Made by a program: the position numbers and the translations under genes
In this document: positions 12,024 to 51,600 of the stretch, piece after piece
Layout of the letters: each line of letters opens with the position of its first letter
Numbering within the stretch: position 1 is the stretch's first letter
Assembly: GCF_000497125.1 (NCBI RefSeq)
Contig: NC_090597.1
Span: 507,797-571,796 of the forward strand
Origin: Spironucleus salmonicida
Taxonomy: Eukaryota
Direction: 5' to 3'
Length of the DNA: 64,000 nt
Notes under the pieces: generated by a model
The model's input: only the letters and a program-made list of their open reading frames with translations
What the model was told of the DNA's origin: nothing
The model's database searches: none

Positions 12024-13283
12024 ATGAAGCAACGAAATTACATCGAGGGAATGTTTGCTACAACTAATTTGTGGGCAATAACCGTGTAAATATATGAGAT
12101 GTTCTGTGTAAAGGTAATCTCCCCGCCTCGATACGACAAAGATAACGATTTTTCGCAGTAGAGCTTTTTATTCTCTTTCTTCCATTGTGGGCGCTTTGCA
12201 GAGGAAACTTTTGTTTTCCTATAACTATTAACTGTGTAATTTAGCATTTCTTAGCGTTGTTCCTCCATATCCGATATCATCGTTCAGGCAGGAAAGCACT
12301 TAATATAAATTTGTATTCCAGTCTGGAGCACAGCATTCTTAGTGCACTAAAACGCTTCTAGCAAAGCTTTCATCCATAATATTCTCTTTATTTCAGCATT
12401 CAAACAGCAAAATTTTAACCCTTTGGATATTTTGTAGATCCACTCGTAGTTGGTCATTGGGATAATTTTTATCGTATTCTGCAATTGTATTAGCTTAGGA
12501 CTAAAAATTAACCTATAAAAAATCGCTAGTTTTTCATTCAATTTTTGCGTTTTTTCCCGCCTCGTCTGTTCGGTTTTAGTCGTCTTTCTCACAAAAAACG
12601 CACATATTTTGTTCTTTCCATTCTTTCAGATCTACCTTTATGCCATTGCGATATACGTTTCTACAGTATTTTGGAGATTTGAAGTCAACGAATTCGGCAT
12701 TACGAACACGCAAATTCAGCACATTCCGCCCACCTACCACCTGTTAGTCAAATTTTTATGCTCCAAATCGAACCTCGTGGGCGATATGCTAATCACCATT
12801 TTGACAGCTTTTGGGAGCGGGTTTCTCGTGAAATTCGTCCATTAGACCGAAAGCGACTTTCTGAGTAACAAGCTAATGGGCATTTTCGTGCTGGCTTTCG
12901 GCCGCGTGGGATGGATTTTAGTCTTTTACATGAGCATAGTGCCCGTTTTCTACGATTTTGCGCCGCTCACAAACCGCTTTCTGGCCTGCCCCATCTTCAC
13001 GAGCCTGGGCGTGCACGCGAACGAGAACTTCATCGGGGCCATTGTCGTGCTGCAGACGCTGCTGCAGGCCACGAAAGGGATGCAGGTGGGCCCCTACAAC
13101 AACGGCACCGTTTTGCTCGCCGTCGGGGGCGTGATGTCGCTGACGCTGGTAGGCGGGCAGCTGATCGCGCAGCTCTTCTCGCTCATCGTGAAGGCGATTG
13201 TGAGCAAAATCGACAGGTACTGGGAGCTGCAGAAGACGAAGCGCGTCGCCATGCAAATTCGGCAGAAAATGGTTAATAAGTGA
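12024..13283 (+). CDS. Multi-pass membrane protein, possibly divergent acyltransferase-3 (OafA-like), copy 1, 419 aa (table 6)
   Basis: Single table-6 frame joins track ORFs 12609 and 12876; N-terminal RNYIEGMFA..LWAITV and GRFAEETFVFL loosely echo AT3 TM1/TM2 motifs; ends AAG-TGA. Gene is solid, family is tentative. Confidence 0.7.
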
Positions 13284-13987: not shown

Positions 13988-16900
13988 ATGCCGAAACCTT
14001 AAAATTATTTCGGAAACTGCGGCAGAAACCTTGACCCCGCCAACAACTCGGCGGACTGCGACACCAACTCCTACTGTCCCCTTCCTAACTATAAGGATGA
14101 CGTGTTCTGCAAAGAATGTAATGTTAACATGCTCCCTGGAAAGAAGTGCAACTGCGCCGATAATTTAAGGTAAAACTGTGCGGAGTGTACCGGAATCCAG
14201 TGCTCCAAGTGTATTAGCGGCTACACGCTGGTAGGAGGGTAGTGTACTCTGTCCCAATAAAGCTGTAATAGCGATTCAGCTAAATGCCAACATGGGTCGT
14301 TTTGCCCCTAGGCCTCCGGTACGAGATGCTAAAACTGCACTGGGATAAGCATCCAGCAGTCCTGTAACTGCGCCGGTCAGATTATCGTCGGATGTTAAAC
14401 GTGCAGTGGTGACTTTTGCTCTAAATGCGTAAGCAGCCTCATTTTAGTGAATGGAAAGTGCGTAACTTCCATTCCTAACAGGAACTGCTCGGAAAGCAGA
14501 GACTGCAGTGTGGGCTACTACTGCAACGGATCAAAATGTCAAAGCTGTTCCATGTCCACTGATCCCAACGTCCAGTGCTACTGTGAGAATGATGATACTA
14601 TTCAAGGATGTTCCGTTTGTGACGTCGGTGGCAGTGGGTGTAGAACTTGTGGTTCGAATTAGGTGTATGGAACAGTTTATAATCGAAACTTCAAAAGTTG
14701 CTAGAACCCAAAAAGTTGTTTCCGCGGTTCCAGTACTACTAACCCCACTAGTACTAATTGCACCTAGGGATTTTATTGTGACGAAGCGGCCTTAACCTGT
14801 CGGACCTGCGATACTATGTATCTGAGCGAAGGTTGTAATTGTAGCCCTCATAGAAAGCTGTATAATTGTGTAATTTGCAATAGAGAATAATGTGGATAAT
14901 GTGGGTACGGATTTCTCCTGTCAAAAATTAGCACGGGAACCAACTGCCTCGCCAATTACTGCACGAACGAGACGAGCTTGTGTTTAAATAATTATGCCTG
15001 CCCGTCGTGGACCAAGGGAATGGCAGCTTGCGAAACCTGTGTGATAGGTTAAACGGTACCTTGTTAATGCTTTTACCTACAAAACTGCGAGACCTGCGAT
15101 CTTACTGCTTAAACATGCGAGACTTGTCTTCCCGGATTTATTTTCAACGGTGAAAAACGCTGCGTAGCGAAGCAGAATGTATGCAGCCCTTAAAAAGAAT
15201 CATTTACCTGCAATGTCGGAAGTACCTGCGCTGGAAACCCTGGAGAAGACTGCTTGGTATGTTCTAGCATTAAGGAGGGTCAGTTTTGCAATTGTGGTAA
15301 GATGCTTTAGGAAAATTGTAAGGAATGCGAAGGAGATAGTTGTAAAGTTTGTTTAGATAAGTACTTACCCATCGGGGGAATTTGTGTACCCAATATGTGT
15401 GGAGAGCCCAAAAACACGCAAAACTGCATTGATGGTTACTACTGTCCGAATAATGCGACTTCGGAAACTGACGTTTGCAAGCCATGCAATAACTAATAGC
15501 AGGAATGCAAATGCGGGCTTCTCCCCAGCTGTTAAACGTGTGGGTCTGGAGCTAATACATGTGGTTCCTGCTTCTCTGGATATGATTTACAATCTAGTAA
15601 CTAACAATGCGTTTTGAAGGGCGATATCTGCGACTTCGCTAACGGCTCCACGCTTTGCACGTCTGGCAAGTTCTGCTAAGGCAAATTCGGAGAAGCGTGC
15701 GTACCTTGCGATTCAATGAGCAAAGGTAAGGCCTGCAAATGCGGAGGTGCGCTGTTCCAAAATTGTAAGTAATGTAATTCGGAGAATGATGGGTGCGAGG
15801 ACTGCATTGACGGTTATTACCCGTACAACAACATCTGCGTCACAAACACCTGCAATGCTGGCGGGCCCTCAAGCACCTGCGCGCTGGGCAATTACTGCCC
15901 TAATGGGAGCGGAAACAATGTAAACTGCCTGCTGTGCACAGACAAATCCCCTAACTCCTGCCAATGCGGGGCCAACTTCTGCCAAACCTGTGGAGATACC
16001 AATAATTCCTGCGGTTCCTGCATTGCTGGGTACGAATTAGATGCCAAGAATTAATGTATTCTGAAGGCAAATATATGCGATTCTAATAATAAATCAACAT
16101 TATGTAATGACGACTTTTACTGTAATAGTACTTTTGGAACCATTTGCGCCAGCTGTGGCCAGCTTTAGATAGACGAATCCTGCCACTGCAGTGGAGAGGA
16201 CATCAAGAACTGTAACAAGTGCAGTAATGGGCGATGCACAAACTGTCTTTCTGGGTTTGAGCTGCTGCAAGGGACCTGCGCCTAAAACAACTGCGGCGAT
16301 GATTTTTCGGCGACTAAATGCCTTCCCCAACACCACTGTCCTCCTGGCTCGGAAGCAAATGCAAAATGCGAGCCCTGCTCAATTGCGGTAGACGCAGTAT
16401 GCAACTGTGGTACAGCATAAAACTGTAAAACCTGTGGAATTCTATCCAACACATGCCAGACGTGCAAGAGTGGCCATGTATTCAATCCTTCCACTCTGCA
16501 ATGTGTTGAGATCACAGACAAAACTACAAATATATGCGATAAAGACAACAAGTCTTCGAGGTGCAACAACTCGTTCTTTTGCAATGGCTAGTTCGGCGAG
16601 GTCTGCCTGCCCTGCAACCAGCTGACGAGTGGGAAGTCGTGCAACTGCGGCGGAACCCTCAGCGAAAACTGCATTTTCTGCTAAGATGCAAAATGCAAAC
16701 TCTGTATTGCTGGGCTGGAGCTCCTCAACGGCGAGTGCAAGCCTAACAGATGCGGGCCAGCAAACTCCTGCTTCAACGGCTTCTTCTGCCCTTCTAATGA
16801 TGTAGAATCCAACTGCTAGCTCTGCACCACCGTATCTGTTAAGGAATGCAAATGCTCGGGTGCCAAAAACTGCCAGACCTGCTCGGCGTACCAAGACAGC

Positions 16901-17950
16901 TGCCAGACCTGCCTGACAGGATTTCTACTGGTAAACGGCTTCTGCCAGCCCAAAGTCAACTGCCTTGACACCTCTGACTGCCCGGTAAACTAGTACTGCG
17001 ACGAGACTGATAGTTAGTGCAACGTCTGCGGAAAATAGGACAAAGCCTGCAACTGCGGCAGCTCGATAAACTGCATCGCGTGCAGTGCTGCCGGAACCTG
17101 CTCCAGCTGCCTGTCTGGGTACGGGCCCGACTCTCAGAACTCCTGCTCGGTGCCGATTTGCAGCATCAATGTTCCGGCGGGGCACTACTGCAGCGGCCCC
17201 AATGATACGAAATAATGCCCTGCGGCCCAAAACCAGTGCAACTGCGGGAACGCGCAGAACTGCGCCACCTGCACCGCGGACAACAAGGGCTGCGCCACCT
17301 GCATGGCAGGCTCGGTGATGATCAACAAACAGTGCCTGGTGAGCCCTCCAGGCTTCACGGGTGTATGCGATAACGTTTCAGACTCATCATTCTGCCTCAC
17401 CGGGCATGCCTGCATTTTACCAAAGTCCTGCTCTCTGTGCAAGCATGTATCGCCAGGATTTCTATGCAACTGCGAGGGGAACCAGTTCGACACCTGCACG
17501 AGCTGCGACGGGAACAAGTGCGCAGGCTGCTTTACCGGATACGTGCTGGTCGATCAGGTCTGCAAGGTGATGTGCAAGACGGACGATAACTGCTTGGTAG
17601 GCTAAATGTGCGGTGCCTCCCAGTCCTGCGAGGGCTGCAACGGTAAGAGTTCGTGCAACTGCTCCGGTATGCAAAACTGCGCAAACTGCAGCGACACGAA
17701 ATGCGTCGCCTGCACCCCGGAATGGAAGTTGAGCACGGAAGATTAATGCGACTCCTGCGCTGAAGGGTTTGAAATGGTCGAGCAAGTTTGTGTCCCTATA
17801 TAAGAATAACGTAATGAGTCGCTGTTCATAGCGAACATAGCCGGCATGGTGGTAGCTGCGGTGGCCGCGGTAGGCATAATAGCCGGCGTGTCCATATTTT
17901 ACGCCAAGCGCCCTAAGAAATACAGCTTCTAGCATGCAATGATAGAGTGA
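13988..17950 (+). CDS. Large cysteine-rich membrane protein (CRMP/HCMP-like), ~1320 aa (table 6)
   Basis: Repeated CxC..CxxC..CxxCxxGY modules; C-terminal TM IAGMVVAAVAAVGIIAGVSIFYA followed by KRPKK; ends GAG-TGA; track ORFs 14447 and 17303 are in this frame. Confidence 0.88.
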
Positions 17951-18915: not shown

Positions 18916-19011
18916 AGTAGTATATAATACGTACTAAATACATAAACTTGCGAAACTCATTTTCAAAATAAGTTTCGCAAGTTTATGCTTTTAGACATAT
19001 TACATACTACT
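18916..19011. repeat. 96-nt imperfect palindrome (foldback) with a 17-bp perfect core
   Basis: CATAAACTTGCGAAACT (18941-18957) pairs with AGTTTCGCAAGTTTATG (18971-18987); pairing extends imperfectly inward and outward. Confidence 0.85.
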
Positions 19012-19637
19012 CCTTCAAGCTTGTAGTATAATTACATTTTCTTATTCAATATACTTTATATATTAATTAATAGCTAAATGTTTTCGACTCCATTTTTGTT
19101 GAAACTTTCCTGCAGGTTGATCTCTAGGATTTATACGATTTTGCTGGTTTCTTATTACTAAATATTTGGATTTTACAAAGCAGTATTAATGATTCCCAGT
19201 GCCCATGGAACAATACCTATTTGAACACCAGAAAATGTTGTTGTGAACTCTTAAGCTCTATTTTCGCATTTACTTTACTTGACTAACAAAAATAGAAGCA
19301 TGTAGAAATTCAGAATAACCACAACTTTTGAGTCAGATGCACTTATTACAAGACATAATTCTTCAATAGTTTTTTCATCTAATTCTAGGTTATTAGTTAT
19401 CACATTATAAAATATTTTATGAATTTAATTCATATTGTGCTTAAGTTAAGTCTAGCTAGACTAATTAATGTACTGCAATGTTATATCCTGCTTACTGAGC
19501 ATTGAAACTAATTGTAAATCATTGAAATTACACTCATATGACTTAAAAATAATCTTAGCATATTAGTCAACTTTAAAATCTTCTGGGATATCAATAATCG
19601 AACGAATAGACAAAAATACTTCTATTTCATCACATTT
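18963..19637 (-). pseudogene. Protein-like open frame (~224 codons; first ATG at 19502), probably a gene remnant
   Basis: KCDEIEVFLSIRSIIDIPEDFKVDQY...DEKTIEELCLVIS...GVQIGIVPWALGII; upstream frame is interrupted by TGA at 19638-19640 and 19878-19880; no recognisable family. Confidence 0.35.
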
Positions 19638-21687
19638 TCACTAGATTTCTAATGAAATAATCTGACCTTAGTGTGTGAATTATATCACCTTTTACTTTAT
19701 AAATAACTAATTCAACAATTAAAACAAGAAGAATTTCAACCTAATCAGCTTAATATTGCATATTTGAGTCTACTACTACTATATTAGTACTCTGTACTAA
19801 TCATGGAAATGATTAGCAGTGAATTTATTTAGGTTTTAAAAATGGTAAATATAACTGTATAAGCCTTAAAAGATAAGTCACATGTATGCTGTAAAAAAGT
19901 AATGAGAGCACCTTGAATATTTGTATTGTATAAATGGAATATAATTGCGCCTTGTAATTTTATTTGCATAACAAAACTCACGGACTCCTTAAAATGCTTC
20001 TTTACATATAAATTTATCATAACTATGTCCAGAGGTATTGTTATTAGACATTATAAATTAATAAAACTGGTAAGCATATGTAATAAAATAAACATAATTA
20101 TATAAATTATAGATATATGGAGAGTAAAATTTACCTATCAAACACATATTCTCCTGATAACCAATTTTTTGGCTTCAAGTATAGCGTAGCTACAACATCT
20201 AGTTAAAATTTTCAAAATATGATATTAGTATATCATATTTCACCGTCTGATGCACTATACTATCATGGAATAGAGTTTGTCAATTGTTTGCATTGCCATT
20301 TATTAAAAAAAGCTCGCCTTTGATAATTTAGCATATTCAGTATACTTATTGGAACCAGTTCCCCAGTTTAAACAGTGTTCAACACAATACATTTATGTAT
20401 TATGAATTCTTTAAAAATATAACTGATGTACTAGAGATATGCAATTCTGAGATTTCTCCTGACATAAAAGGTGGCACTACGTATTATTTATTTATCAGTT
20501 GATAATCTTCTATAATATACAGGTTACAATTCGTGACTTATGAAGAAAAACAATAATTGTTGATGTTTACTCATTCAATTAAGAAAACTATTATTGTGTA
20601 CTTTAAAGTAGATCTTTTCATCATTGCAAAAGCTCTTTACTTGACTAACCACCATTCAGTAATTATCTTGAACTTGCAATATATAAACTGATGTTAACAA
20701 CATTAACTTCAGCAATAAACTGCATTATCTATTTACTTATCTTCACTGAGATATGATTTCTATCATTTATAAAAATATTTAGACCCTGGATAGATGATTC
20801 CTTTGTTTAGTCAAGGCACCTGATATATGATGTATAAGTAAAGTATAAAAGTCAATCTAGCTTCATTTATCCAATATTACACTAATGGATATCATTAATA
20901 GCCCAGCAGCCAGCTTTCTCTGTCTTTTCTTGAATAGCTTTACTCTCAAAGATTATTTGACGCAGTTGTAAAATAAAATATTTGTGGAATAAAAAGTGTT
21001 CGCTCTGCTTATAAATCTTGGTTTGCCTCGAAGTATCATGTAACTTATCAATAAATAATAGACGACTCCAAATGTTAGCTCTACAGGCGACTACAGCTAC
21101 CAATCATTAACTTGAATATGCCCCTGGTATATTTAGCTAGATGGAAATCAAACTTGCAGTGATCAAATTTGTCATATACATGGTTGGAAACTTGAAATTC
21201 TTAGTAAAGCAAGAAGCTCAAGTAAAGCATATAAGGATACCAAGTATTAACACTAACAAAGTTTGGACTAGTGCACCTTATTTAGCATAAATAAATTGCA
21301 ATAACCTATTAGATAAATTCTGTGGTATTGAGAACATGTTTTCCAGCAACCGACATATGCTAAAATTTAAATAAACAATCACTCAAGAATAATCACGTAG
21401 ATTTTATTTTACTCAATTGTGGCTATAACAGTATTGATTTTCACAAATGTATACAACAACTCATATTATAGCTTCCCCTTAATATTGTAAAGATTTTAGT
21501 CGAAACATTCTTTTTAGCTTGCTGTCCTAGGCTCTGTATAAAAATATTTTACATTTACTTCAGAAATATTGGTGCTACCTTAAAATACGGAAATCAATTT
21601 GTTCACAACTTAATTGTACGTCTACTATAAAAATTTTGTTTAGGTAAGAGAAAGTTGATATATATCCTTAACTATCGCATTCTAACA

Positions 21688-24600
21688 TCATTTTTTATAT
21701 TCTGATGGAATCAAAAATTATTTATTGTCATCAGTTAGCTAATCGACGATTAAAGTAGTTCCATCGATAGAGACTGGGAAAAGATGTATTCCAAGCAAAA
21801 ATCCAACTATGTCTCTGTTGTTAAGAATTTATGTATAAGTATCTTCCTCTCCTACCTTTTTATAGGTTATAGATGAATTAACTAAACAGGTATTTATCTA
21901 TTCCAGTATTTGTAAAACATATAATTAATTTACTTTTTTAGCGGTAATCTCTTGAAAGTTTACACTGTTCGCGACCCACATGATATCCACACCCTAAATA
22001 CATAGAGAGTTTGCTTTTTTATCATTGCAGAACTTACCTAGCTATGCAAATTTTGATTGATATGCTACTTTTAGCGCCGTAGTGTTTGCTATCTTATTCT
22101 TCAGCTCATATATTTCTAAAGGTATTACAGTAGCTAGAATAAGAGTATAAATATTCATCTAATTACTTACTTTTACTATATAGCAATTTTCAATACCTAC
22201 TTTGTATACAATCAAGATACCAAAAATTTTATTAATATCTGTTAATTAAAGTCCCAACATATAAATCTATAAACATATTTCTTCAGACTACTAATCTATA
22301 ATAGATATTAATTTATTTTACTTTGTAATCTGCTAAATTTAAGTAAAAATATTTTCAGCAAACGGTTCAGATATATTTATCAGACAGTTTACGATAACGT
22401 TTAAATTATTAAATTGGCGGGTATAGTTAACCAATTAAAAAATACCTAGAGCGAATACCTTCTTTGATATGCCCATAAACTCTTTTTTTACATTTGCTTA
22501 TTTTTTTTAAGTTTGATCTTATTAGACAGCGTTATTATTGTTTCCTTCTCCCAATTATTTTTAAAATTATATTAAAAAAACTTAAAATACAATAACGCAA
22601 ATTGTGGGGTGAAGACCTAGCACTGCTTACAACTTTTATTGCATACTAAATATTTATTTCCATGTTTTATCTCTTATTAGTTCATTATAACATTTTTTTA
22701 TAAGAATCTCATTCTATTCCTGTGTGTGATAGCAATACTTTACGTCTCCTTCCTATCGTCGAGGATATAAGGATGTAAGTGGGCCAGTCTCGCGCAATGC
22801 CATTATCAGCGGTATGGATAATGCTGAGGAGTAACTGGCTTTTGAAATCAATTTATCTTATTACTGTTCATTCCGTTATAATGATACATCAATTACTTGA
22901 GACAATTAATAATAATTATTATCTTCGTTTTCCTTTAGTTAAGAAACTATTTTTTCCTCAAGAATCAATAAATCTTCTTTGATTATTTTCACGTATTCCT
23001 ACGCTGGCATCATATAGTTTAATGCATTCTCTTACATTTTAATTTCATCTTAGTATATCTTTTTTTAATCACTTATTTCAGTTTCAACATTCGTCTTGTT
23101 GCAATTCGCTAATACTAACTCATATCCAAGTTATTATGATATAACAGCTAAATCATCTAACGCGGTTTTCAAGTATGGTTTTTAAACCCCTGACTCGAGA
23201 GTGTATTGAAATTTTCGTAACTCCCTTTATTTGGATAGTAAACTTGTTTTAGTATCTATACTAATAGATTTAGCGATATCGAGCATTTCCTCAGCTTCTT
23301 TTGAACCTTACTCTAACAATTAAATTTAATAATTTGCATTTATTACTTTTTCTGCCATATGCTTTATTTATTATAAATGAATAATATTATCATACTTTGC
23401 TTATAACATTTCAAACTCAGCTTACGCTTTTATGGCCGCTTTTTCAATATCATTATCTTTATTAGTATTATCTGTTAGTATTTATTACCAAGTATTTGCT
23501 TATTATAACTATAGCTCTGCCTATTTAATATTAAACTATTTTATTGGTGAATCTAATTCATCTTTTGTTTATAGTAATGCTTTTTCTGCATTTTTAATCT
23601 CTTATTTTGCATTTAACATTGCGTATTCTTACCGTTTTTCGTACTAAATAACTATATTTTTAGCATCTACATTTGGTTCGCTTGCGTTTGCTTTGGCTGT
23701 AGTTAGTTCTGCTTCCGCTTGGTTGACTTTTAATTTAGCTGTAGTTAGTTCTGCTTCCGCTTGGTTGACTTTTAATTTAGCTGTAGTTAGTTCTGCTTCC
23801 GCTTGGTTGACTTTTAATTTAGCTGTAGTTAGTTCTGCTTCCGCTTGGTTGACTTTTAATTTAGCTGTAGTTAGTTCTGCTTCCGCTTCCTTTACTTCAA
23901 CCTTTAATTCCTTTACTTCAACCTTTAATTCCTTTACTTCAACCTTTAATTCCTTTACTTTTAATTTAGCTGTAGTTAGTTCTCCTTCAGCTTCGTCTAC
24001 TTCGTTCTTCAGCTATTCTACTTTACCATCTGCTTTTACTACTTCGTTCTTCAGCTATTCTACTTTACCATCTGCTTTTACTACTTCGTTCTTCAGCTAT
24101 TCTACTTTACCATCTGCTTTTACTACTTCGTTCTTCAGCTATTCTACGTTACCATCTGCTTTTACTACTTCGTTCTTCAGCTATTCTACTTTACCATCTG
24201 CTTTTACTACTTCGTTCTTCAGCTATTCTACGTTACCATCTGCTTTTACTACTTCGTTCTTCAGCTATTCTACTTTACCATCTGCTTTTACTACTTCGTT
24301 CTTCAGCTATACTACTTTATCATTTGCTTGGGCTACATCATTATTCAGCTATTCTACTTTTGCTTTTACTTTATTTAAAACCTCCACCTCTTTCTGTGCT
24401 TAGTATGCTTCTACTTTTTCCGTTCTTGCTTCATATTATGGACTCACCTAGTGGTGTAGACAAATCTGATTGAAGTTTTGCTGGTATTTATTTGTTACCT
24501 GGAAACATGTTGTAATCCCGGTATCTTTTTATTTTTTAAACATTTCTTCCCCAGTGTGGTTTCCTGAATCCATCAACAGATTAATGCTTGAAACTTTCTC

Positions 24601-27600
24601 TCCATCCACGTCACGGGTCTAAATTGATAGCATTTTTTTGTTAGAAAATGAATCTCTTATTGTATCCTCCACCCCGAATAGTGAAATTAGATAATCCGGC
24701 ATCGGCGGAGATGTCTCAAAAAATAGATTCGAAATGCAAGTTTTATCAGTAATAGTTACGATCGCAAGTTTCTCATCCTTCTATAGTAGACCTAGTTGTT
24801 TTAGCTTTACATAGCAAACGCTGGCGTTCTGAATAGGGTCACCAACGTACATATCTATATCTGGCTTATCTAGGTTCTAGTATTTATCGAAAGATTTTTG
24901 TAAAAACATGAAAAATGCACCTTTAAAAAGCGACTAAAACTGTGCATACATTTCTATCAATGTAATATCATAATTATATTACATCTAAAATGGATTCACA
25001 TAAATCTCCAGATACTGTGAATAATTGTTAATTGATTTTAAAAGTTTATCTATACCAACTAGATGAGCAGGTTATTATCGACACAATGAGATAACTAAGA
25101 GTATCATTGATGATATTTCTGAAATTTGTTGCTGTTTGAAGAAGCTCAATATTTGGCCAGTACTGCACAACGTGTTGAGTTAATGTTTATCTGATACTCC
25201 AATTAATTTAGATATAGCGTACATGAACTGCTAACTAGCCATAAAATGTAGCACAAATACCACATCTCGATTCAACGATGAGGATGAAGTAAGGTGTAAA
25301 TTCTTGTTAAAATCTGCAATTGATGACGGTATTAATACTACCATGGTTTCTTTCTCATTTTGTACCAATTAGCTTGCTCCAACAAGTTCCTTATCCCTCA
25401 TTATAAATAAGGAATTATAAATTTAACTGTGCGAAGAAATCTAATTCAAAGGAATCTTCTTTTTATTAACTTTGAACTAAAATTACTTTGTAGAATTAAA
25501 AAAGTATGGATATTAACCTTTATTAATAATAATCTGTGGGCATATCAATGGGCACAGGAACTGTAGTTCTGCTGCCAAATCAGGTATCATTGTAAGGTAG
25601 AAATCATTGATGCTCATATTTTTTACCTTATCTTTTACCTATTATATCATAGAATCGTCAGTTTAGGTTGTAATTCGCATATCCTTGTAGTATCGTTAGG
25701 TCAGACAAGACGGGTGCATTTAGGAGGTGCCAAGAATATTAGATTGCCTATAGGGTTTTCCATCTCTACTATTTTCGGAAGTATACAAAAACTCATTCTA
25801 TCTAATGAAGTTTATAAGGGCTAGATCAGTTCCTGCTGCCAGCAGGTGAACTGTTTTCACTGAGATAAAGGGTATTTTTTCATAAACCTTCTAGTTAGGG
25901 AATTTTATATTAATATCTAACGTGTGTTTGAATAAATAGGTGTACTATTTATTTAGTTTATTTTTAACCTTAATTTGGCTAACTAACTCATCGGTTGCAT
26001 CAGATTGTTAATTCATAAAATAATAAATATTTCTCCAGAATATCGTTTCGATCCCACGCGGGTTGTACAGCATAAGGAGGAATTAGTATAGTTTCTATGT
26101 GAATACTTCCAACGTACTATATTTTCTAACATCCGATATCATTTCCTAGAACGACTCCTCTACTTTTTATGACTATCTAAGGTTGATAAAATTGGGAGAC
26201 GAAATGCCCATTAGATCAATAATTTTATAAGCTTTACAGTTCTTGAATAACTCAGATGGTATTAGTCTGAGAAAGTATCGTTCAATCTCTGCAGAATCAC
26301 CACGGATGTACTCTACTTTTTACTCTGCTTCTTTCAAGTATTAAGGTTATTCAGCACGTTAAACTGTATCTATTTCCAAACCATTTTTACGAATTTCTAA
26401 CCAGTCTAATAAGTATATTAGATCAATAGCTGCTATCTCTTTGATATTCAAAAGTACTTCATCAATGCTCGATTTTGCATTTTCCATAAATTTGACAACG
26501 AATAAGTTGGTTATTCTAACTAGCGCACGGGTGCACAATGCGTAGTTGGTTTTCTGCTAGGATAAACACTCATCGACTAAGATAGTAATTTACTTGTTTT
26601 TGCTAAATTCTTGAATTAAGTTTACATTTTTATTTGGTTTAATAAATCCATTTTTGTATTACTTAATTCTCCAAGATACATGCTCTATTTATAACTATAC
26701 CTCATTATTTTCTTTATTATTTTCAATTTATTTCTACAATTATTTTAACTCTTCTGATAAAGTGACTTAGATTTACTTCAATTGATCTGCTTGTTAATAA
26801 TTAAAAAAATTAAACCCACCACTTAGCGAAAATTATTCAAAAGAAGATGTGCCCGTAAAATATGAAACAAATATATTTTTAAGTAATATTTATAATGTCA
26901 GCATATCATAATTTTTGATTAACTTGAAACACTCTGCTTTAACATAAGCCATCGTTTTAGAATATTCAATTCCATCTTTCAAATTACTACTAATAATATC
27001 TCCAAGCTTAGTTTTACGTTGATATTTACAAAAAAGTGTTTTTAGCTGTTAACCAATCTTGATAGAACTTCTGTCATATAAAGGTTGAGTGTCTAGCTTC
27101 TATTTCTCTTCTGTAAATCCAGTGTTAATCAATATGGGAATTTTTAGCCCCGAGAATAAGTTGAAGTAGAAGATGGTGTGCAGGGTGACTGTTTTACCGC
27201 TCCTAGAACTCTGGCTCATAACCGCATTTTCGATGGGGAAGAATGCTGAGAACACCGCAAAGTACTGCGCCTTGAACAGGTACGACACGTTGCACATTTG
27301 CTGGAAGATGAACTTGTTGGTATCGTTAAATTCTAATATTTTTAGTAAATGCACTGGGAGCTCAAAGAAGTTTTAAAAATTTGTCGACATAACAGCATCA
27401 TTGTAAATTTATTGATTAGTGCTAAGAATAGATTTACCAGCCGACTAATAAATAGTAGTAGGATCTATAGCGTTTGAATATAACATTTGCTGATAAATAA
27501 GGTAAGCACTATATCCAAATATCATGGGCAGTAGATGCGCATATATTTTAAACTTATGTAATGCTATACCAATTATTTGCAGGATAGCCTATTTCTCGAC

Positions 27601-28200
27601 AATGCTAAAGTTAGATGGTATTTTAAACTGGGGCTAAGTTAGTTTGTAGTCTTCGACTTAGTTATCTTTTTCATTCTAATCTTACTACTTACTTTTCTTT
27701 TTACTCACAATACAATTAGGAAATAATTTAGAGTCAATTGCTGAATTTTTAGAAACTATAACAATCTCGTGATCTGATTTCATGCTTTATACTTATACCT
27801 TTGCTAGTTTTTGTATTTCTTCATCGCCTATTACTTAATATGATAAAACTGAAAATCCCATTTGGATAGATAGTGAGACCAGATTTAGCCAGTAGTCGGA
27901 TACTGAGTTATTCTTTAAATCAAACGTCTTTTGAATAATGATTATCTAGATTTTCCGTTTGAACAGCAGTTCTTATTTATGCTGCCACATAAAGAGGTGT
28001 AGGAGGCTGAGGGTTTCAACAGTATCAATGGTTATCCTCAGGTAACGTACGGTATCGTCAATGTCGCTTATCTAAAATTCAGTTCCACTAAATTAAAAGA
28101 CTATTTCCGGCAAGAGGTCATTCATATCTTTGTCTAGAGAGGAAAAAGTGAGCTAGGTAGGTTTAGCTTCGGACTTGGTATTCTAGTCTTGATCGGTCAT
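21688..28200 (-). CDS. ~2170-aa P-loop NTPase with putative REase-fold motifs and tandem-repeat coiled coil (table 6)
   Basis: Continuous TGA-free frame from ATG 28200 (preceded by CCACTCC motif); Walker A-like SQSSRSGKT (aa 329-337), Walker B ITILVDE (aa 538-544), sensor-1-like VHLLAAGT (aa 784-791), MPDYLI (~1168), CFQVT (~1233), heptad repeats aa ~1280-1500. Confidence 0.85.
23693..24320 (-). repeat. Coding tandem repeats: 42 bp x ~7.7 (NEVVKADGKVEQLK), 21 bp x ~3.5 (VKELKVE), 42 bp x ~4.6 (AEAELTTAKLKVNQ)
   Basis: Near-identical DNA units, all multiples of 21 bp, in frame with the 21688-28200 ORF. Confidence 0.92.
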
Positions 28201-31200
28201 TTAAGGAGTGGTAATAAAATTTATATCTAAATATGATTAATTAATTATAATATAATATATTGTATAGAATAATATTATGCTTATTCTGGTAGTGAATATG
28301 AAAAATACCATTAACAAATAATTCAATCAAATTATGTCATAAATAATAGACATATATCATGTATAGTGTAAGAAAACATATATAATATCTTCTTTCATCA
28401 AGTATCAGATAAACTTTTAGTTTTCATTTTATATGCTATGTCTGTGTTCATAACGTATTGTAATATGCTACAGTAACTAAACTGATTGATAATATTGTAA
28501 CTGAAATATTGTTTACCAAATCATATAGTCTAATATCACTATTATGAAATATTTTCAAATATTAAATTGAAAATGAATTACGCCAGATAAGAAACACTAT
28601 AAAATATTTCCAACACAATGATTATATTGCTTACGCAATAATGAATAATAGACTATTATGATTATGCAAAACAAGAGCAGAATAACTAATGTTTAGTTAT
28701 GGCATCGCCCAAACATAAGGTAAAATAATTTTTCACTACTCTTAAAATTTCTCTGTATGTTTCAACATTTATATATATTCTCATTTACAGGATAAAAAGT
28801 ATTTCCTGTTATCAAATAGTATTATTATTTAGATTATTCTAAAGTTTTTTGAGTAAATTTAGCTCTAACACCCTGAGATAAATTTAAGCATATTATTAAA
28901 GCAATATTAGAGTGAAATAACTTCATAAATATTATTAAAATGATTATTTTTATTATATTAGATTTGTTTAGATTCAAATAGACTATAATTAGAAATATAT
29001 TATGATAAGTATGTGCAATATTATTTCTTATCTCATACTAACTTTGTTACTTATATAAAATATTATATTCAATATAGATTATATTAATATAAACATCATA
29101 ACTTGTGTTTCTGGTGAATTTCTCGTTACTTTTCATTATAATGTGATCCGATATTCAGCGAACATTTACCAGTTATGATAATAAGCTAATTATTAATTAA
29201 TTAATTAATTAATTAACAATATTCATTGTAATATCTACCTTCTACTATTTCTAGACTGTTTATGCATGTTATTGGCCAGTTTTCATCCTGGAAGAATCAA
29301 TAAGGACTATCATAGGGTATTATTTTTCTCATCTTGTATGACTTTATTTTTCATAGTTACTGGGAATATATAGACCATAGAAGTCTCCTTTAGATAATTT
29401 TTTTCAGAATAATGTATGAAAATTATTAACCACCACTGCTTATTTTCCCCTTAGAAAATAGCATAATGCATTATGAAAGTATCTTTAAATTAAACAGATG
29501 TATCAATATATTATGAATCGATAAGAGCTATCTGGTTATTGTATGCCTTGATTATTAAAGAATTAGATATTTTTAAATAATTTAAATATATTACTATTTA
29601 ATTTTAATAATATATCTACGTTTCGTTTTCATTAATTTTGAATTATATTTATTTAAATATAATATTATTCAATAATAATATTTAAAAATAATAATTAAGT
29701 ATAACTCAAAACAATATTTAATTAACTTCAATGATAAAATAACCTAAATTTAATAAAGATTAAAACCACATTAATTTAGCATAACAATTTAAATTAAAGT
29801 TCTTGTTATATATTAGCAATAACCATATTTTCAAGATGCTAATTTATCAAAGCCTAATTGAAAAAATTATAATTTATATTGTTGTTTATGGGTCTCAAAC
29901 TGTGATAATAATTGATACTTAGCATTTGTAATATTTATATTTTATCAAAATATTTTACTATTATCAATTATAATGTTTACTTATAATATTTCAATATTTT
30001 CAATTACTAATTAACATTGGATTCGTTTACAGCTACATTTTAATCAAGAAAAGAATCTTTAACTCTATATTCTGCTATCTATATTCCCTGCTTAAACATA
30101 TATAAAAGAACTAGGAATCCTTATCACAATCACTCAAAAAACATTAGGATCATATTTGATTTTTAAGTCAATTATAGTAAACAATAACATTTAATATTAA
30201 ATACAAATATTATTTTTTTACATTTTAAAACTCATTGTTTATTTAATTGTTTAAAATATAAAACCTACTATTCATATACATGTTTATATATAAAATAAAT
30301 AATACCATGATTATCTTAATACATACGATCTTAGTATAATTAGTACTGTTATTCATCTTATTTAGGTAATTTTTCATTTTCAAAATTAAAAATCATTTAT
30401 TCATTCACTCTGATATATTTTATTACATATAATTACTTAATATAAACACTTCTATCAGTCATGTAAATTCAACAAATGTAAACTGAGCTGTCTATCTACT
30501 CTTTATTGCTCTAAAAATGTTGTGTTAATTGAGATAATTAGCCTTATCTGTAGTATACTGACACGTATAAACCCCCGAAAATGCAATCGGCAATTTCATT
30601 TTGAAAACCATTAAGTAGTATGTATTACATACTACTACTTTTTTATTTATACCATGCAAATAAAGGCATACGAAGCTATAAGCGGTTAATAGAACACTTA
30701 AAACTTGATATAAATGTGAAAATGAGAGCCAGAACCCAAGCCTGAAGCTATGTCGTAAATTGCTATAACAATGCATACTGGATCTGTGTAAGCAATAAAA
30801 CTTATAAAGAGAATTTTACCAAATGAAATATTAATTCCATATCAAATATATAAACTCTGCTTCACGTGCTTAAAAGGTCTGATTTGCATTCCAGTGATTT
30901 CCAATAGATCATGCATGCAGATTGAAGATTGCTTCTAAGTAGCAGTACTAATAGTGTAAGAGGCTTTCCTGACGAGTATTAATCCATGCGTGCATTTGGA
31001 TTAATTTTTTTAAGATTTATTAGCTTTCTGGAATATTGCTTTCTTTTAATCTGGTTTACTTTTTATATTCACTTTTGAGGGAAAGTGTCTACAAAATATA
31101 AAATTATAATCGGCTTTATAGAAAAAGCATTGAGAGGTAACCTGATTGTACTGCTTATGCTCATGCAGGATATGTTATTGCCTTAAAGCGTTAGGATACG

Positions 31201-31623
31201 TGAGAATTTCAGCAATATGTTGTGGTACTGTGGAATGCTTAGTTTGGATAAGATATTAGAAATTATGGATTTGATTAACTATTAAAGTAAGTTTTCGTAT
31301 ATGCTGGCTTTTATTTGAGATTAAGTATAAATATTTATCTGTTCTTTTAGACCAATTTATATTTAAGTTTCACAACGCATGAAATAAGTGAATGCATACT
31401 ATTTCACAATATGAATATGCTTTATGCATCCAGCTTGTGCAGAAATGCTGAGATAATTTTAACGTCAAATGTATTTAGTAAATATTCAATAAAATTTACG
31501 ATAACTGCAACAGTACAATGACAATTTGCGTTTCTTATTTAAACTAAAAACTAGGTCACCGGCGTGCACTGTTTATAATTTTGCAGATATGTGATATATA
31601 GTACTACTAATAGGTTAAATGTC

Positions 31624-34600
31624 CTGGTCCGGAGCACCTCAGCTGGCTGGTACCACAGGGCTGGCCCGGAGCACCTCAGCTGGCTGGTACCACAGGGCTG
31701 TTCCGGAGCACCTCAGCTGATCCGGAGCACCTCAGCTGGCTGGTACCACAGGGCTGGCCCGGAGCACCACAGCTGGCTGGTACCACAGGGTTGGTCCTGA
31801 GCACCTCAGCTGGCCCGGAGCACCTCAGCTGGCTGGTACCACAGGGCTGGCCCGGAGCACCTCAGCTGGCTGGTACCACAGGGTTGGTCCGGAGCACCTC
31901 AGCTGGCTGGTACCACAGGGCTGTTCCGGAGCACCTCAGCTGATCCGGAGCACCTCAGCTGGCTGGTACCACAGGGCTGGCCCGGAGCACCTCAGCTGGC
32001 TGGTACCACAGGGCTGTTCCGGAGCACCACAGCTGGCTGGTACCACAGGGATGGCCCGGAGCACCTCAGCTGGCCCGGAGCACCTCAGCTGGCTGGTACC
32101 ACAGGGCTGGCCCGGAGCACCACAGCTGGCTGGTACCACAGGGCTGGCCCGGAGCACCTCAGCTGGCTGGTACCACAGGGCTGTTCCGGAGCACCTCAGC
32201 TGGCTGGTACCACAGGGCTGTTCCGGAGCACCACAGCTGGCTGGTACCACAGGGATGGCCCGGAGCACCTCAGCTGGCCCGGAGCACCTCAGCTGGCTGG
32301 TACCACAGGGCTGGCCCGGAGCACCACAGCTGGCTGGTACCACAGGGCTGGCCCGGAGCACCTCAGCTGGCTGGTACCACAGGGCTGTTCCGGAGCACCC
32401 CAGCTGGCTGGTACCACAGGGCTGTTCCGGAGCACCTCAGCTGGCTGGTACCACAGGGCTGTTCCGGAGCACCTCAGCTGGCTGGTACCACAGGGCTGTT
32501 CCGGAGCACCTCAGCTGGCTGGTACCACAGGGATGGCCCGGAGCACCTCAGCTGACCCGGAGCACCTCAGCTGGCTGGTACCACAGGGCTGTTCCGGAGC
32601 ACCCCAGCTGGCTGGTACCACAGGGCTGTTCCGGAGCACCACAGCTGGCTGGTACCACAGGGATGGCCCGGAGCACCTCAGCTGACCCGGAGCACCTCAG
32701 CTGGCTGGTACCACAGGGCTGTTCCGGAGCACCCCAGCTGGCTGGTACCACAGGGCTGATCCGGAGCACCTCAGCTGGCTGGTACCACAGGGCTGTTCCG
32801 GAGCACCTCAGCTGGCTGGTACCACAGGGCTGTTCCGGAGCACCTCAGCTGACCCGGAGCACCTCCGCTGGCTGGTACCACAGGGCTGGCCCGGAGCACC
32901 ACAGCTGGCTGGTACCACAGGGTTGGTCCGGAGCACCTCAGCTGGCTGGTACCACAGGGCTGTTCCGGAGCACCTCAGCTGGCTGGTACCACAGGGCTGT
33001 TCCGGAGCACCTCAGCTGGCTGGTACCACAGGGCTGGTCCGGAGCACCACAGCTGGCTGGTACCACAGGGCTGGTCCGGAGCACCTCAGCTGGCTGGTAC
33101 CACAGGGCTGGTCCGGAGCACCTCAGCTGATCCGGAGCACCTCAGCTGGCTGGTACCACAGGGCTGTTCCGGAGCACCACAGCTGGCTGGTACCACAGGG
33201 CTGGTCCGGAGCACCTCAGCTGATCCGGAGCACCTCAGCTGGCTGGTACCACAGGGCTGTTCCGGAGCACCACAGCTGGCTGGTACCACAGGGCTGGCCC
33301 GGAGCACCTCAGCTGGCTGGTACCACAGGGCTGTTCCGGAGCACCTCAGCTGGCTGGTACCACAGGGCTGTTCCGGAGCACCTCAGCTGACCCGGAGCAC
33401 CTCCGCTGGCTGGTACCACAGGGCTGTTCCGGAGCACCTCAGCTGGCTGGTACCACAGGGCTGGTCCGGAGCACCACAGCTGGCTGGTACCACAGGGCTG
33501 TTCCGGAGCACCACAGCTGGCTGGTACCACAGGGCTGGCCCGGAGCACCTCAGCTGGCTGGTACCACAGGGCTGGCCCGGAGCACCTCAGCTGGCTGGTA
33601 CCACAGGGTTGGCCCGGAGCACCTCAGCTGACCCGGAGCACCTCCGCTGGCTGGTACCACAGGGCTGGCCCGGAGCACCACAGCTGGCTGGTACCACAGG
33701 GCTGTTCCGGAGCACCTCAGCTGGCTGGTACCACAGGGCTGGCCCGGAGCACCTCAGCTGGCTGGTACCACAGGGTTGGCCCGGAGCACCTCCGCTGGCT
33801 GGTACCACAGGGCTGGCCCGGAGCACCTCAGCTGACCCGGAGCACCTCCGCTGGCTGGTACCACAGGGCTGGCCCGGAGCACCACAGCTGGCTGGTACCA
33901 CAGGGCTGATCCGGAGCACCTCAGCTGGCTGGTACCACAGGGCTGTTCCGGAGCACCTCAGCTGGCTGGTACCACAGGGTTGGTCCTGAGCACCTCAGCT
34001 GATCCGGAGCACCTCAGCTGGCTGGTACCACAGGGCTGATCCGGAGCACCTCAGCTGGCTGGTACCACAGGGCTGTTCCGGAGCACCTCAGCTGGCTGGT
34101 ACCACAGGGTTGGTCCTGAGCACCTCAGCTGATCCGGAGCACCTCAGCTGGCTGGTACCACAGGGCTGTTCCGGAGCACCACAGCTGGCTGGTACCACAG
34201 GGCTGGCCCGGAGCACCTCAGCTGGCTGGTACCACAGGGTTGGTCCTGAGCACCTCAGCTGATCCGGAGCACCTCAGCTGGCTGGTACCACAGGGCTGAT
34301 CCGGAGCACCTCAGCTGGCTGGTACCACAGGGCTGGTCCTGAGCACCTCAGCTGATCCGGAGCACCTCAGCTGGCTGGTACCACAGGGCTGATCCGGAGC
34401 ACCTCAGCTGGCTGGTACCACAGGGCTGTTCCGGAGCACCTCAGCTGGCTGGTACCACAGGGTTGGTCCTGAGCACCTCAGCTGTTCCGGAGCACCCCAG
34501 CTGGCTGGTACCACAGGGCTGTTCCGGAGCACCACAGCTGGCTGGTACCACAGGGCTGGCCCGGAGCACCTCAGCTGGCTGGTACCACAGGGCTGTTCCG

Positions 34601-37324
34601 GAGCACCACAGCTGGCTGGTACCACAGGGCTGTTCCGGAGCACCCCAGCTGGCTGGTACCACAGGGCTGTTCCGGAGCACCTCAGCTGGCTGGTACCACA
34701 GGGCTGATCCGGAGCACCTCAGCTGGCTGGTACCACAGGGCTGATCCGGAGCACCTCAGCTGGCTGGTACCACAGGGCTGTTCCGGAGCACCTCAGCTGG
34801 CTGGTACCACAGGGCTGTTCCGGAGCACCTCAGCTGGCTGGTACCACAGGGCTGTTCCGGAGCACCTCAGCTGGCTGGTACCACAGGGCTGATCCGGAGC
34901 ACCTCAGCTGGCTGGTACCACAGGGCTGGCCCGGAGCACCTCAGCTGGCTGGTACCACAGGGCTGTTCCGGAGCACCACAGCTGGCTGGTACCACAGGGA
35001 TGGCCCGGAGCACCTCAGCTGGCTGGTACCACAGGGCTGTTCCGGAGCACCTCAGCTGGCTGGTACCACAGGGCTGTTCCGGAGCACCTCAGCTGGCTGG
35101 TACCACAGGGCTGGCCCGGAGCACCTCAGCTGGCTGGTACCACAGGGCTGTTCCGGAGCACCACAGCTGGCTGGTACCACAGGGATGGCCCGGAGCACCT
35201 CAGCTGACCCGGAGCACCTCAGCTGGCTGGTACCACAGGGCTGTTCCGGAGCACCTCAGCTGGCTGGTACCACAGGGCTGGCCCGGAGCACCTCAGCTGG
35301 CTGGTACCACAGGGCTGTCCGGAGCACCTCAGCTGGCTGGTACCACAGGGCTGGCCCGGAGCACCACAGCTGGCTGGTACCACAGGGCTGTTCCGGAGCA
35401 CCTCAGCTGGCTGGTACCACAGGGCTGGCCCGGAGCACCTCAGCTGGCTGGTACCACAGGGCTGGCCCGGAGCACCTCAGCTGGCTGGTACCACAGGGCT
35501 GGCCCGGAGCACCTCAGCTGACCCGGAGCACCTCCGCTGGCTGGTACCACAGGGCTGATCCGGAGCACCTCAGCTGGCTGGTACCACAGGGCTGTTCCGG
35601 AGCACCTCAGCTGGCTGGTACCACAGGGTTGGTCCTGAGCACCTCAGCTGATCCGGAGCACCTCAGCTGGCTGGTACCACAGGGCTGTTCCGGAGCACCA
35701 CAGCTGGCTGGTACCACAGGGCTGTCCCGGAGCACCTCAGCTGGCTGGTACCACAGGGTTGGTCCTGAGCACCTCAGCTGATCCGGAGCACCTCAGCTGG
35801 CTGGTACCACAGGGCTGATCCGGAGCACCTCAGCTGGCTGGTACCACAGGGCTGGTCCTGAGCACCTCAGCTGATCCGGAGCACCTCAGCTGGCTGGTAC
35901 CACAGGGCTGATCCGGAGCACCTCAGCTGGCTGGTACCACAGGGCTGTTCCGGAGCACCTCAGCTGGCTGGTACCACAGGGTTGGTCCTGAGCACCTCAG
36001 CTGTTCCGGAGCACCCCAGCTGGCTGGTACCACAGGGCTGTTCCGGAGCACCACAGCTGGCTGGTACCACAGGGCTGGCCCGGAGCACCTCAGCTGGCTG
36101 GTACCACAGGGCTGTTCCGGAGCACCACAGCTGGCTGGTACCACAGGGCTGTTCCGGAGCACCCCAGCTGGCTGGTACCACAGGGCTGTTCCGGAGCACC
36201 TCAGCTGGCTGGTACCACAGGGCTGATCCGGAGCACCTCAGCTGGCTGGTACCACAGGGTTGGTCCTGAGCACCTCAGCTGATCCGGAGCACCTCAGCTG
36301 GCTGGTACCACAGGGCTGATCCGGAGCACCTCAGCTGGCTGGTACCACAGGGCTGTTCCGGAGCACCTCAGCTGGCTGGTACCACAGGGCTGTTCCGGAG
36401 CACCTCAGCTGGCTGGTACCACAGGGCTGTTCCGGAGCACCTCAGCTGGCTGGTACCACAGGGCTGATCCGGAGCACCTCAGCTGGCTGGTACCACAGGG
36501 CTGGCCCGGAGCACCTCAGCTGGCTGGTACCACAGGGCTGTTCCGGAGCACCACAGCTGGCTGGTACCACAGGGATGGCCCGGAGCACCTCAGCTGGCTG
36601 GTACCACAGGGCTGTTCCGGAGCACCTCAGCTGGCTGGTACCACAGGGCTGTTCCGGAGCACCTCAGCTGGCTGGTACCACAGGGCTGGCCCGGAGCACC
36701 TCAGCTGGCTGGTACCACAGGGCTGTTCCGGAGCACCACAGCTGGCTGGTACCACAGGGATGGCCCGGAGCACCTCAGCTGACCCGGAGCACCTCAGCTG
36801 GCTGGTACCACAGGGCTGTTCCGGAGCACCTCAGCTGGCTGGTACCACAGGGCTGATCCGGAGCACCTCAGCTGGCTGGTACCACAGGGCTGATCCGGAG
36901 CACCTCAGCTGGCTGGTACCACAGGGCTGTTCCGGAGCACCCCAGCTGGCTGGTACCACAGGGCTGTTCCGGAGCACCTCAGCTGGCTGGTACCACAGGG
37001 CTGATCCGGAGCACCTCAGCTGGCTGGTACCACAGGGCTGGCCCGGAGCACCACAGCTGGCTGGTACCACAGGGCTGTTCCGGAGCACCCCAGCTGGCTG
37101 GTACCACAGGGCTGTTCCGGAGCACCTCAGCTGGCCCGGAGCACCACAGCTGGCTGGTACCACAGGGCTGTTCCGGAGCACCTCAGCTGTCTGGTACCAC
37201 AGGGCTGTTCCGGAGCACCTCAGCTGGCCCGGAGCACCACAGCTGGCTGGTACCACAGGGCTGTTCCGGAGCACCTCAGCTGGCTGGTACCACAGGGTTG
37301 GTCCTGAGCACCTCAGCTGGCTGG
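31624..37324. repeat. 5.7-kb GC-rich satellite; 37-bp unit CCGGAGCACCTCAGCTGGCTGGTACCACAGGGCTG(TT/GC/GT/AT) interspersed with 19-bp half units
   Basis: Direct reading; 24-26 of 37 bases are G/C; about 150 unit-equivalents; no unique spacers. Confidence 0.97.
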
Positions 37325-48039: not shown

Positions 48040-48066
48040 TGGACAACCCGGGAATCGAACCCGGGG

Positions 48067-48097
<31 letters not shown>

Positions 48098-48112
48098 CTG
48101 AGCTAGCCGCCC
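48040..48112 (-). tRNA. tRNA-Ala(TGC)
   Basis: GGGCGGCTAGCTCAGTTGGTAGAGCGCGCGCTTTGCATGCGCGAGGCCCCGGGTTCGATTCCCGGGTTGTCCA; cloverleaf, G3:U70, T-run downstream. Confidence 0.96.
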
Positions 48113-51527: not shown

Positions 51528-51600
51528 TGGACTAACGGGGGATTGAACCCCGGGCCTCATCCATGCTAGGGATGCGCTCTACCAACTGAGCTACCAGCCC
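51528..51600 (-). tRNA. tRNA-Ala(AGC)
   Basis: GGGCTGGTAGCTCAGTTGGTAGAGCGCATCCCTAGCATGGATGAGGCCCGGGGTTCAATCCCCCGTTAGTCCA; cloverleaf, G3:U70. Confidence 0.96.

Follow-up and report, generated by a model that had tools for sequence, protein, structure and literature searches.

We analyzed a 64,000-nt window of the Spironucleus salmonicida genome (contig NC_090597.1, positions 507,797 to 571,796), in which a minus-strand gene at window positions 21688-28200 encodes a protein of 2170 residues. By sequence comparison, this locus belongs to a multigene family, copies of which have so far been found in S. salmonicida alone. The reading that we favor, with confidence about evenly divided for and against, is that of a giant cytosolic head-stalk-tail protein with a probable nucleotide-binding head, a stalk of repeat coiled coil, and a tail domain. 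New here is the finding that the annotated stop codon of the gene is an in-frame TGA followed by a conserved homologous extension. The gene itself is already annotated, and its family is uncharacterized and publicly mislabeled. An earlier note on this DNA had proposed a nuclease effector of the Crinkler type, a reading that is unsupported by the evidence discussed below.

Open reading frames (ORFs) were called over the window with translation table 6, in which TAA and TAG encode glutamine, and also with table 11. With table 6, the minus-strand ORF from the first ATG at 28311 to 21688 has 2207 codons, including 142 TAA or TAG codons read as glutamine; residue numbers throughout refer to this ORF, and subtraction of 37 gives the numbering of the 2170-residue protein. 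With table 11, the sole ORF of at least 100 residues overlapping 20000-30000 lies on the opposite strand, confirming that a 6.5-kb TGA-free frame is nearly invisible to the standard code. Over 21379-28311, TGA occurs twice in the 2311 codons of the coding frame, as compared with 22-78 times in each of the other five frames, and the longest TGA-free run is 2207 codons; across 200 mononucleotide shuffles, the longest such run never exceeded 495 codons (mean 275). Thus, the 2170-codon frame is far longer than chance would give, and the gene is real. The probable start of translation is Met38 ('MTDQDQ...') at position 28200, the start also found in paralog P0003 and the public gene model; because the paralogs and public model begin at this methionine, the 37 in-frame codons upstream of it are probably not coding. 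The earlier note had given the same extent for the gene; its 5' boundary stood, and its 3' boundary is the in-frame TGA with 102 homologous codons beyond it. All of the motifs that had been quoted (SQSSRSGKT, ITILVDE, VHLLAAGT, MPDYLIS, MLSIQTR, CFQVT, and QGVDIMW...LYVLQI) were found in the table 6 translation, and assignment to a diplomonad with an alternative code was borne out by the protein search, which identified S. salmonicida. The gene had also been called hidden, but it is not, because the exact 2170-residue sequence is present in NCBI and UniRef as an S. salmonicida hypothetical protein (1,877,751-bp contig). A 2014 gene model (UniProt V6LLP0) has 2144 residues, is 99% identical to the window protein, and bears the UniRef name 'Dynein heavy chain'.

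A word-indexed search with residues 300-1260 returned 11 proteins at E ≤ 0.001 among 4382 candidates, with identities of 25-99%, all from S. salmonicida. When a 979-position core profile was searched against 1.84 billion representative proteins, 19 matches were obtained at the same threshold (15 named for S. salmonicida, 3 unnamed UniParc records, and 1 that was not looked up), none of them named for another organism. Cluster look-ups gave at least 20 family locus tags distributed over several chromosomes, including near-identical recent duplicates and disrupted copies. Three subfamilies share ~20-25% identity, and sequence conservation extends from about residue 50 to residue 1340. Searches of the PDB by sequence and by profile yielded coiled-coil matches only, or one match at E 1.6, and a search of the ESM Atlas with P0019 gave no usable match. 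A literature search with six family locus tags found no paper that mentions any of them, and searches on dynein, gene families, and readthrough in Spironucleus gave nothing specific; the supplementary gene tables and Figure S5 of PMC3916229 may list the family or its expression.

Disrupted copies are common in the family. The adjacent split ORFs SS50377_25233 and 25232 (P0015 and P0029) constitute a frameshifted copy of SS50377_25221, to which they are 97-99% identical, and the adjacent ORFs 21281 and 21282 (P0026 and P0027) constitute a split family copy. P0014 (SS50377_28830, 773 residues, 4,336-bp contig) is a partial copy, 96% identical to the N-terminal part of the window protein, and sits on a small unplaced contig; it probably represents a duplicate that was left unresolved. 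Differences between the 2014 gene model (P0002) and the window copy are clustered at residues 72-135 and ~1090-1335, where P0002 has the residues of P0003; either the older assembly is chimeric here or the copies have undergone gene conversion.

UniRef and UniProt attach the dynein name to some paralogs as well as to V6LLP0, whereas NCBI names the same genes hypothetical. If the name were correct, the protein would be a dynein heavy chain, and the database name is all that speaks for this assignment. The Pfam matches of the window protein at E ≤ 1 include no dynein/DHC or AAA+ domain, nor do the families listed for 17 members, and there is a single Walker A motif. At the level of domain content the dynein assignment is refuted, and we regard it as almost certainly wrong.

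Two conserved motifs argue for a nucleotide-binding head. First, a Walker-A-like block with the family consensus N-[AG]-V-h-[SA]-x-[SP]-S-[RK]-S-G-K-[ST] includes Lys373 (Lys336 of the 2170-residue protein), and its SGK[ST] element was kept in all nine aligned rows that have this region; four other rows were shown without the N-terminal part. P0019 reads APSKSGKS, which matches the canonical [AG]x4GK[ST] pattern, and is the only member with the strict [AG] at the first position. Second, in a Walker-B-like block with the consensus h-h-L-V-D-E-x-L-x-x-Q-[KN], Leu578, Asp580, and Glu581 were invariant in 17 of 17 sequences. The local order of strand, loop, and helix, and then a hydrophobic strand plus DE, is the Walker pattern, and neither GK[ST] nor DE varies among subfamilies that share ~20% identity. 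The insert between the two blocks is ~200 residues here, ~160 residues in the P0009 group, and ~1960 residues of tandem repeats in P0028, and the two halves of the site must therefore fold back on each other.

Farther downstream, the family alignment and a second AlphaFold2 model (residues 560-1290, 28 rows) delineated a helical domain, a set of highly conserved blocks, and an alpha/beta domain. This model had a predicted local distance difference test score (pLDDT) of 62.8 and a predicted template-modeling score of 0.54, with 350 of 731 residues at a pLDDT of 70 or more. The most conserved blocks are, in order, SP (705-706), LYNPRxxETxFW, AGTD, SR (848-849), and ILGxxQxHxS. Arg752, Phe758, and Trp759 are invariant in LYNPRxxETxFW, and conserved positions also include AGTD at 827-829 (Gly827 and Asp829), Gly861, and His866. 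In the alpha/beta domain, the conserved motifs are FxFLQxxFD (Asp1142), hhhhxxDK (Asp1189 and Lys1190), PDxLIxxxG (Asp1206), (D/E)SGxH (Gly1250 and His1252), and QV(G/T) (Gln1271).

Several results weigh against the reading of this head as an NTPase. Two of the three subfamilies have Q or N where a strict Walker A motif begins with A or G. None of 17 members matched a curated P-loop family in Pfam, NCBIfam, or PADLOC at E ≤ 1, and an isolated 71-residue Walker-A fragment gave no curated P-loop match even at E ≤ 10. In the first AlphaFold2 model (residues 320-1340, 11 rows), the mean pLDDT was 37 and that over Walker A was ~30, so that no confident P-loop fold was obtained; the second model began at residue 560, downstream of Walker A. 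A complex prediction for the Walker-A part, the Walker-B part, ATP, and Mg, in which alignments were not used, had a score of 0.00 with a partner pLDDT below 50. The most conserved blocks of the family (residues 750-870) were modeled at low confidence. Lastly, the histidine of a 'TFHG' element in distant members is Phe or Leu in the window subfamily, which argues against a shared catalytic role for this side chain. The earlier note had called the NTPase assignment reasonably firm. The conservation of SGK[ST], Asp580, and Glu581 stands behind it, but we consider it less firm than that and place it at the level of motifs only, because no curated profile or fold search supports a P-loop class. 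Based upon the motifs, we lean toward the view that the head binds nucleotide.

The conserved head also bears on the idea that the protein is an effector of the Crinkler/RHS type or derives from a transposon module that was domesticated. In that case, a header would be joined to a P-loop NTPase and to nuclease domains of the PD-(D/E)xK kind, one or two in number, and the protein would target nucleic acids in the role of toxin or immunity factor. Consistent with this idea, Walker-like motifs are present, a conserved Asp in 'PD' precedes a beta-strand, and the family is expanded, fast evolving, and partly pseudogenized, as conflict genes often are; in addition, the region is rich in duplications, and genes for cysteine-rich surface proteins adjoin. 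The Asp of 'MPDYLIS' is indeed conserved (Asp1206, numbered Asp1169 in the earlier note), with Asn as an exception in P0012, but its proposed (D/E)xK partner at 'MLSIQTR' is not. The 'SIQTR' sequence adjoins a subfamily insert (within MLSI-QTRDVDGEKVSSINLLM-DSGNH), this stretch is absent in distant members, and the family motif aligned at the proposed position is (D/E)-[SC]-G-x-H. A restriction endonuclease (REase)-like fold likewise failed to emerge for the well-modeled alpha/beta domain: Foldseek searches with the whole 731-residue model gave no match at E ≤ 0.001 in the PDB (best 0.31) or in BFVD (best 0.062), both best values falling within the stated noise of the tool, and the best VIA Z on the alpha/beta domain was 4.5, again with the whole 731-residue model rather than the domain alone as the query. 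A second REase-like module had been suggested at QGVDIMW...LYVLQI, a segment that sits in a tail domain common to paralogs only.

Pfam families served for the comparison of headers. The matches of the window protein at E ≤ 1 included no Crinkler, Crinkler-RHS (CR) header, helix-turn-helix (HTH), or nuclease family, and neither did the 25 most widely shared of the 49 families obtained for 17 members. In CR effectors, a toxin module of NTPase, HTH, and REase domains follows the header (Zhang et al., 2016, as summarized in PMC5289972), an architecture unlike that of a 2170-residue protein with a 400-residue coiled coil. No signal peptide was evident in the translation. Moreover, the flanks of the gene carry neither terminal inverted repeats nor long direct repeats, and no second family copy occurs within the window, which argues against a domesticated mobile element. 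We consider the effector reading extremely unlikely and do not think that the protein cuts DNA.

The head is followed by a coiled-coil stalk, as the earlier note had also described. Tandem DNA units of 42 and 21 nt at 23692-24360, matching at 95-100%, encode 14- and 7-residue repeats, and coil matches to tropomyosin, SMC, LmuB, and JetC are confined to residues ~1291-1700. Beyond the stalk, the last ~125 residues of the tail are 26-30% identical to the C-terminal domain of nine further family proteins, and this end domain is common to most full-length paralogs. A search of the tail (residues 1640-2207) against shorter proteins found nothing, and the tail domain has no relatives outside the family. 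At the other end of the protein, the N-terminal domain (residues 38-330) matched no Pfam family at E ≤ 1 except for a sub-threshold AFT match, and its matches among shorter proteins were S. salmonicida fragments only.

Two further alternatives were weighed. In one, the protein would be a purely structural coiled-coil component of the cytoskeleton or a scaffold, diversified within its lineage, and the Walker-like motifs would be relics or would bind nucleotide without turnover. Diplomonads have many lineage-specific coiled-coil cytoskeletal proteins, and the long coiled coil, its recent repeat expansion, and the lack of P-loop profile or fold support all fit such a role. However, the strict retention of GK[ST] and DE across distant subfamilies and a conserved non-coil head of ~1300 residues are hard to explain by a scaffold alone, and we give this alternative a modest chance of being right. 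In the other, the protein would be an SMC/Rad50-like ABC ATPase acting on chromatin or DNA, with an arm of antiparallel coiled coil or repeats connecting its N-terminal Walker-A half to its C-terminal Walker-B half. The variable insert between the Walker motifs, very long in P0028, and weak matches to SMC, Rad50, LmuB, and JetC profiles are compatible with this arrangement, but these matches cover only the distal coil (residues 1291-1700; 49.5 bits versus a cut-off of 729), the main coiled coil comes after the head and not between its halves, and no D-loop follows DE. There is also no conserved LSGG; the 'LSGG' of the window protein at residues 496-499 precedes the insert and is not kept in the paralogs. 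This second alternative is highly unlikely.

In the head-stalk-tail protein that we favor, the head of ~1300 residues would comprise the family N-terminal domain, the probable nucleotide site, the helical domain, and an alpha/beta domain lined with acidic and histidine residues. The site itself would form when the Walker-A-like loop (SxSGK[ST]) and the Walker-B-like hhhhDE strand fold together across the insert of variable length. By binding and probably hydrolyzing a nucleoside triphosphate, the head may power a cycle of conformational change or assembly, broadly as SMC/Rad50 proteins, large GTPases, and motor proteins do. The recently expanded stalk would most likely dimerize the protein, and the tail domain, shortened in the window copy, would mediate attachment or partner binding. 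No long hydrophobic segment was found and the N-terminus is hydrophilic, features that suggest a cytosolic location. The role could be cytoskeletal or chromatin related; a conflict-type family, too, would be expected to expand, diverge rapidly, and contain pseudogenes as this one does.

The end of the gene sets the window copy apart. Other full-length paralogs extend ~100 residues past the end of the window protein, and the 102 codons that follow the annotated TGA align without gaps over positions 1-102 with paralog C-termini (28-36% identity; E 2e-11 to 6e-7 in a 45-sequence database). This TGA is not an assembly error, since the 2014 gene model stops at the same residue and contigs from four of four public sequencing runs span the codon with no mismatches. 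The four runs come from one 2019 study and are guessed to be RNA; their contigs leave 19868-21268 and 28741-32000 uncovered, and three of the four run contigs end at 21381/21382, which is the second TGA, a weak hint that these ends mark transcript ends. Sequence context does not decide whether the first TGA is a stop, because 3 of the 10 other ORF ends in the window carry AATGA, its context (followed by T), and 5 of the 10 carry AGTGA. AGTGA is described as the combined stop and poly(A) motif of the species, with poly(A) ~9-14 nt downstream, in PMC3916229 and PMC1805757.

We think it quite likely that the window copy is a nonsense-truncated member of a birth-and-death family and has lost the last 102 residues of its tail; its product would most likely be a C-terminally truncated variant in a family that gains and loses copies. 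Alternatively, the in-frame TGA could be decoded, by readthrough or as selenocysteine, to give a full 2273-residue protein with the family C-terminal domain. Some points favor decoding. First, the downstream codons are in frame, TGA-free, and 28-36% identical to paralogs, as compared with 26-34% for the upstream tail. Second, contigs of all four runs bridge the first TGA, and the second TGA lies within the stop/poly(A) motif. Third, a tRNA-Sec and selenocysteine machinery are reported for S. salmonicida (PMC3916229 and PMC1805757). Against decoding, a 102-codon stretch would be free of TGA by chance in an estimated ~16% of cases at this base composition, the AATGA-plus-T context recurs at other ORF ends, other family copies are plainly broken, and no paper on readthrough in Spironucleus was among the matches listed. 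Selenocysteine in particular is unlikely, because the paralogs have Leu or Met, not Cys, in the TGA column and no match to a selenocysteine insertion sequence element was found in the window at Rfam gathering scores. Decoding of the TGA, by whichever route, is thus an unlikely alternative to truncation. Quite improbable is the bolder combination in which the family would be a novel nucleotide-driven, head-stalk-tail mechanochemical class of the Spironucleus lineage, with head folds outside the known P-loop classes and perhaps a cytoskeletal or chromosome-handling role in a reduced toolkit, and in which the TGA would also be read through here.

These results matter for several reasons. At least 20 giant genes, by our estimate ~1-2% of a 13-Mb genome, encode a family without relatives found elsewhere, in a pathogen of farmed salmon. 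Our analysis corrects the misleading public label of dynein heavy chain and removes the effector/nuclease reading. If the head is an active NTPase, the family would be a new branch of nucleotide-driven machines and could explain lineage-specific features of diplomonad cell biology. The in-frame TGA with its conserved downstream domain provides a natural test of how strictly a single stop codon is observed in this code, and readthrough, if it occurs, would mean that the one stop codon this organism possesses has been redefined.

Features of the gene and its flanks. Coordinates are window positions; residues are numbered in the 2207-codon ORF.
Feature	Position	Strand	Evidence
37 in-frame codons 5' of Met38, from the earlier ATG; probably not coding	28201..28311	-	Paralogs and public model begin at Met38
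Annotated coding sequence, 2170 codons plus TGA	21688..28200	-	Table 6 translation, paralog start, public gene model, shuffles
N-terminal family domain, residues 38-330	27322..28200	-	Kept in distant paralogs
Walker-A-like block N-A-V-M-S-Q-S-S-R-S-G-K-T-V, residues 362-375	27187..27228	-	Family alignment
Variable insert between Walker A and Walker B, partly coiled coil, residues 500-560	26632..26814	-	Alignment
Walker-B-like block ITILVDECLSQQK, residues 575-587	26551..26589	-	Family alignment
Helical domain, residues 599-749, modeled at pLDDT ~75-90	26065..26517	-	AlphaFold2 model
Most conserved motif blocks, up to ILGxxQxHxS	25702..26070	-	Family alignment
Conserved alpha/beta domain, residues 999-1274, pLDDT 80-90	24490..25317	-	Alignment and AlphaFold2
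Coiled-coil stalk, residues ~1290-1700	23212..24444	-	Coil profile matches, tandem repeats
Tail region, residues 1921-2207	21691..22551	-	34% identical to P0003-type paralog tails
In-frame TGA, annotated stop; Leu or Met at this column in paralogs; context AAAAAATGAT	21688..21690	-	Paralog alignment
102 further in-frame codons, 10 TAA/TAG, no TGA; ends ...VIILE	21382..21687	-	Paralog alignment
Second TGA at the family stop position, inside AGTGA	21379..21381	-	Alignment, motif

The neighbors of the gene are those of an ordinary S. salmonicida chromosome and include sugar and nucleoside transporters, a kelch protein, a CLN3 homologue, and cysteine-rich membrane proteins. Segmental duplication seems to be frequent in this region, which has duplicated pairs at 6669-8015(-)/45462-46808(+), 9681-11147(+)/38378-39760(+), 12024-13283(+)/40077-41795(+), and 52931-54727/60270-62269; these are sugar transporters, nucleoside transporters, a multi-pass protein, and a high-GC ORF (an inverted pair). 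GC content differs between duplicate copies (~0.38-0.44 versus 0.52-0.53 for the transporter block), and over the window it ranges from 0.19-0.29 in intergenic stretches up to 0.60-0.67 at 32-38 kb (for example, 32001-38000); the ORFs of the GC-rich parts have no in-frame TAA or TAG. Compositional heterogeneity and a subset of genes with unusual codon usage are reported for the species in PMC1805757. The ORF at 13988-17950(+) encodes a 1320-residue cysteine-rich protein with a C-terminal membrane anchor and no Pfam match, and that at 5626-6528(+) encodes a 300-residue protein with a sub-threshold match to Giardia VSP (24.6 bits versus 31.4); both products are probably variant cysteine-rich surface proteins. 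Two tRNA genes, at 48040-48112(-) and 51528-51600(-), reached the Rfam gathering score.

Repeats also flank the gene at a distance. A tandem array of at least ten copies of 37/19-nt units lies at 31587-32000, in a long AT-rich spacer upstream of the gene. At 18934-18994 there is a 30-nt perfect-spacing palindrome, 90% complementary, and run contigs of 1.4-1.6 kb fit the adjoining 19013-19388 partly, with 4-5 mismatches, pointing to a transcribed element downstream of the gene that is repeated or has paralogs.

How does this family compare with known systems? Like the ASCE P-loop NTPases (AAA+ enzymes, ABC/SMC proteins, and SF1/SF2 helicases), it has a block consisting of a beta-strand, xxSGK[ST], and a helix, as well as an invariant hhhhDE, and its downstream polar blocks AGTD and NPRxxE could be sensor or Arg-finger elements. 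Unlike these enzymes, its members match no class by profile or fold, usually have Q or N at the first Walker A position, separate Walker A from Walker B by 160 to ~1960 residues, and display no recognized signature motif, helicase motif VI, or AAA+ lid. SMC, Rad50, and MukB proteins are, like members of the family, very large, with a long coiled coil and a head of nucleotide-binding type in which a long arm between the two motif halves is tolerated, but the family differs in having its main coil after the head, in the absence of LSGG and D-loop motifs, and in profile matches that are limited to the coil and far below cut-offs. CR effectors share with it a variable N-terminal region followed by Walker motifs and membership in an expanded, fast-evolving eukaryotic family; the family differs from them in having no detected header, HTH, or REase domain, no conserved (D/E)xK, and no sign of secretion, and in carrying a 400-residue coil and a tail. 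Similar in outline is Giardia HPSR2, described as a diplomonad 'head-stalk' protein with an N-terminal P-loop head, a long coiled-coil stalk, and no motor homology; however, no Giardia protein was among the 19 profile matches, and the head of the family studied here is far larger. On present sequence evidence, we would classify the family as a variant of Walker-motif NTPases that is restricted to one lineage.

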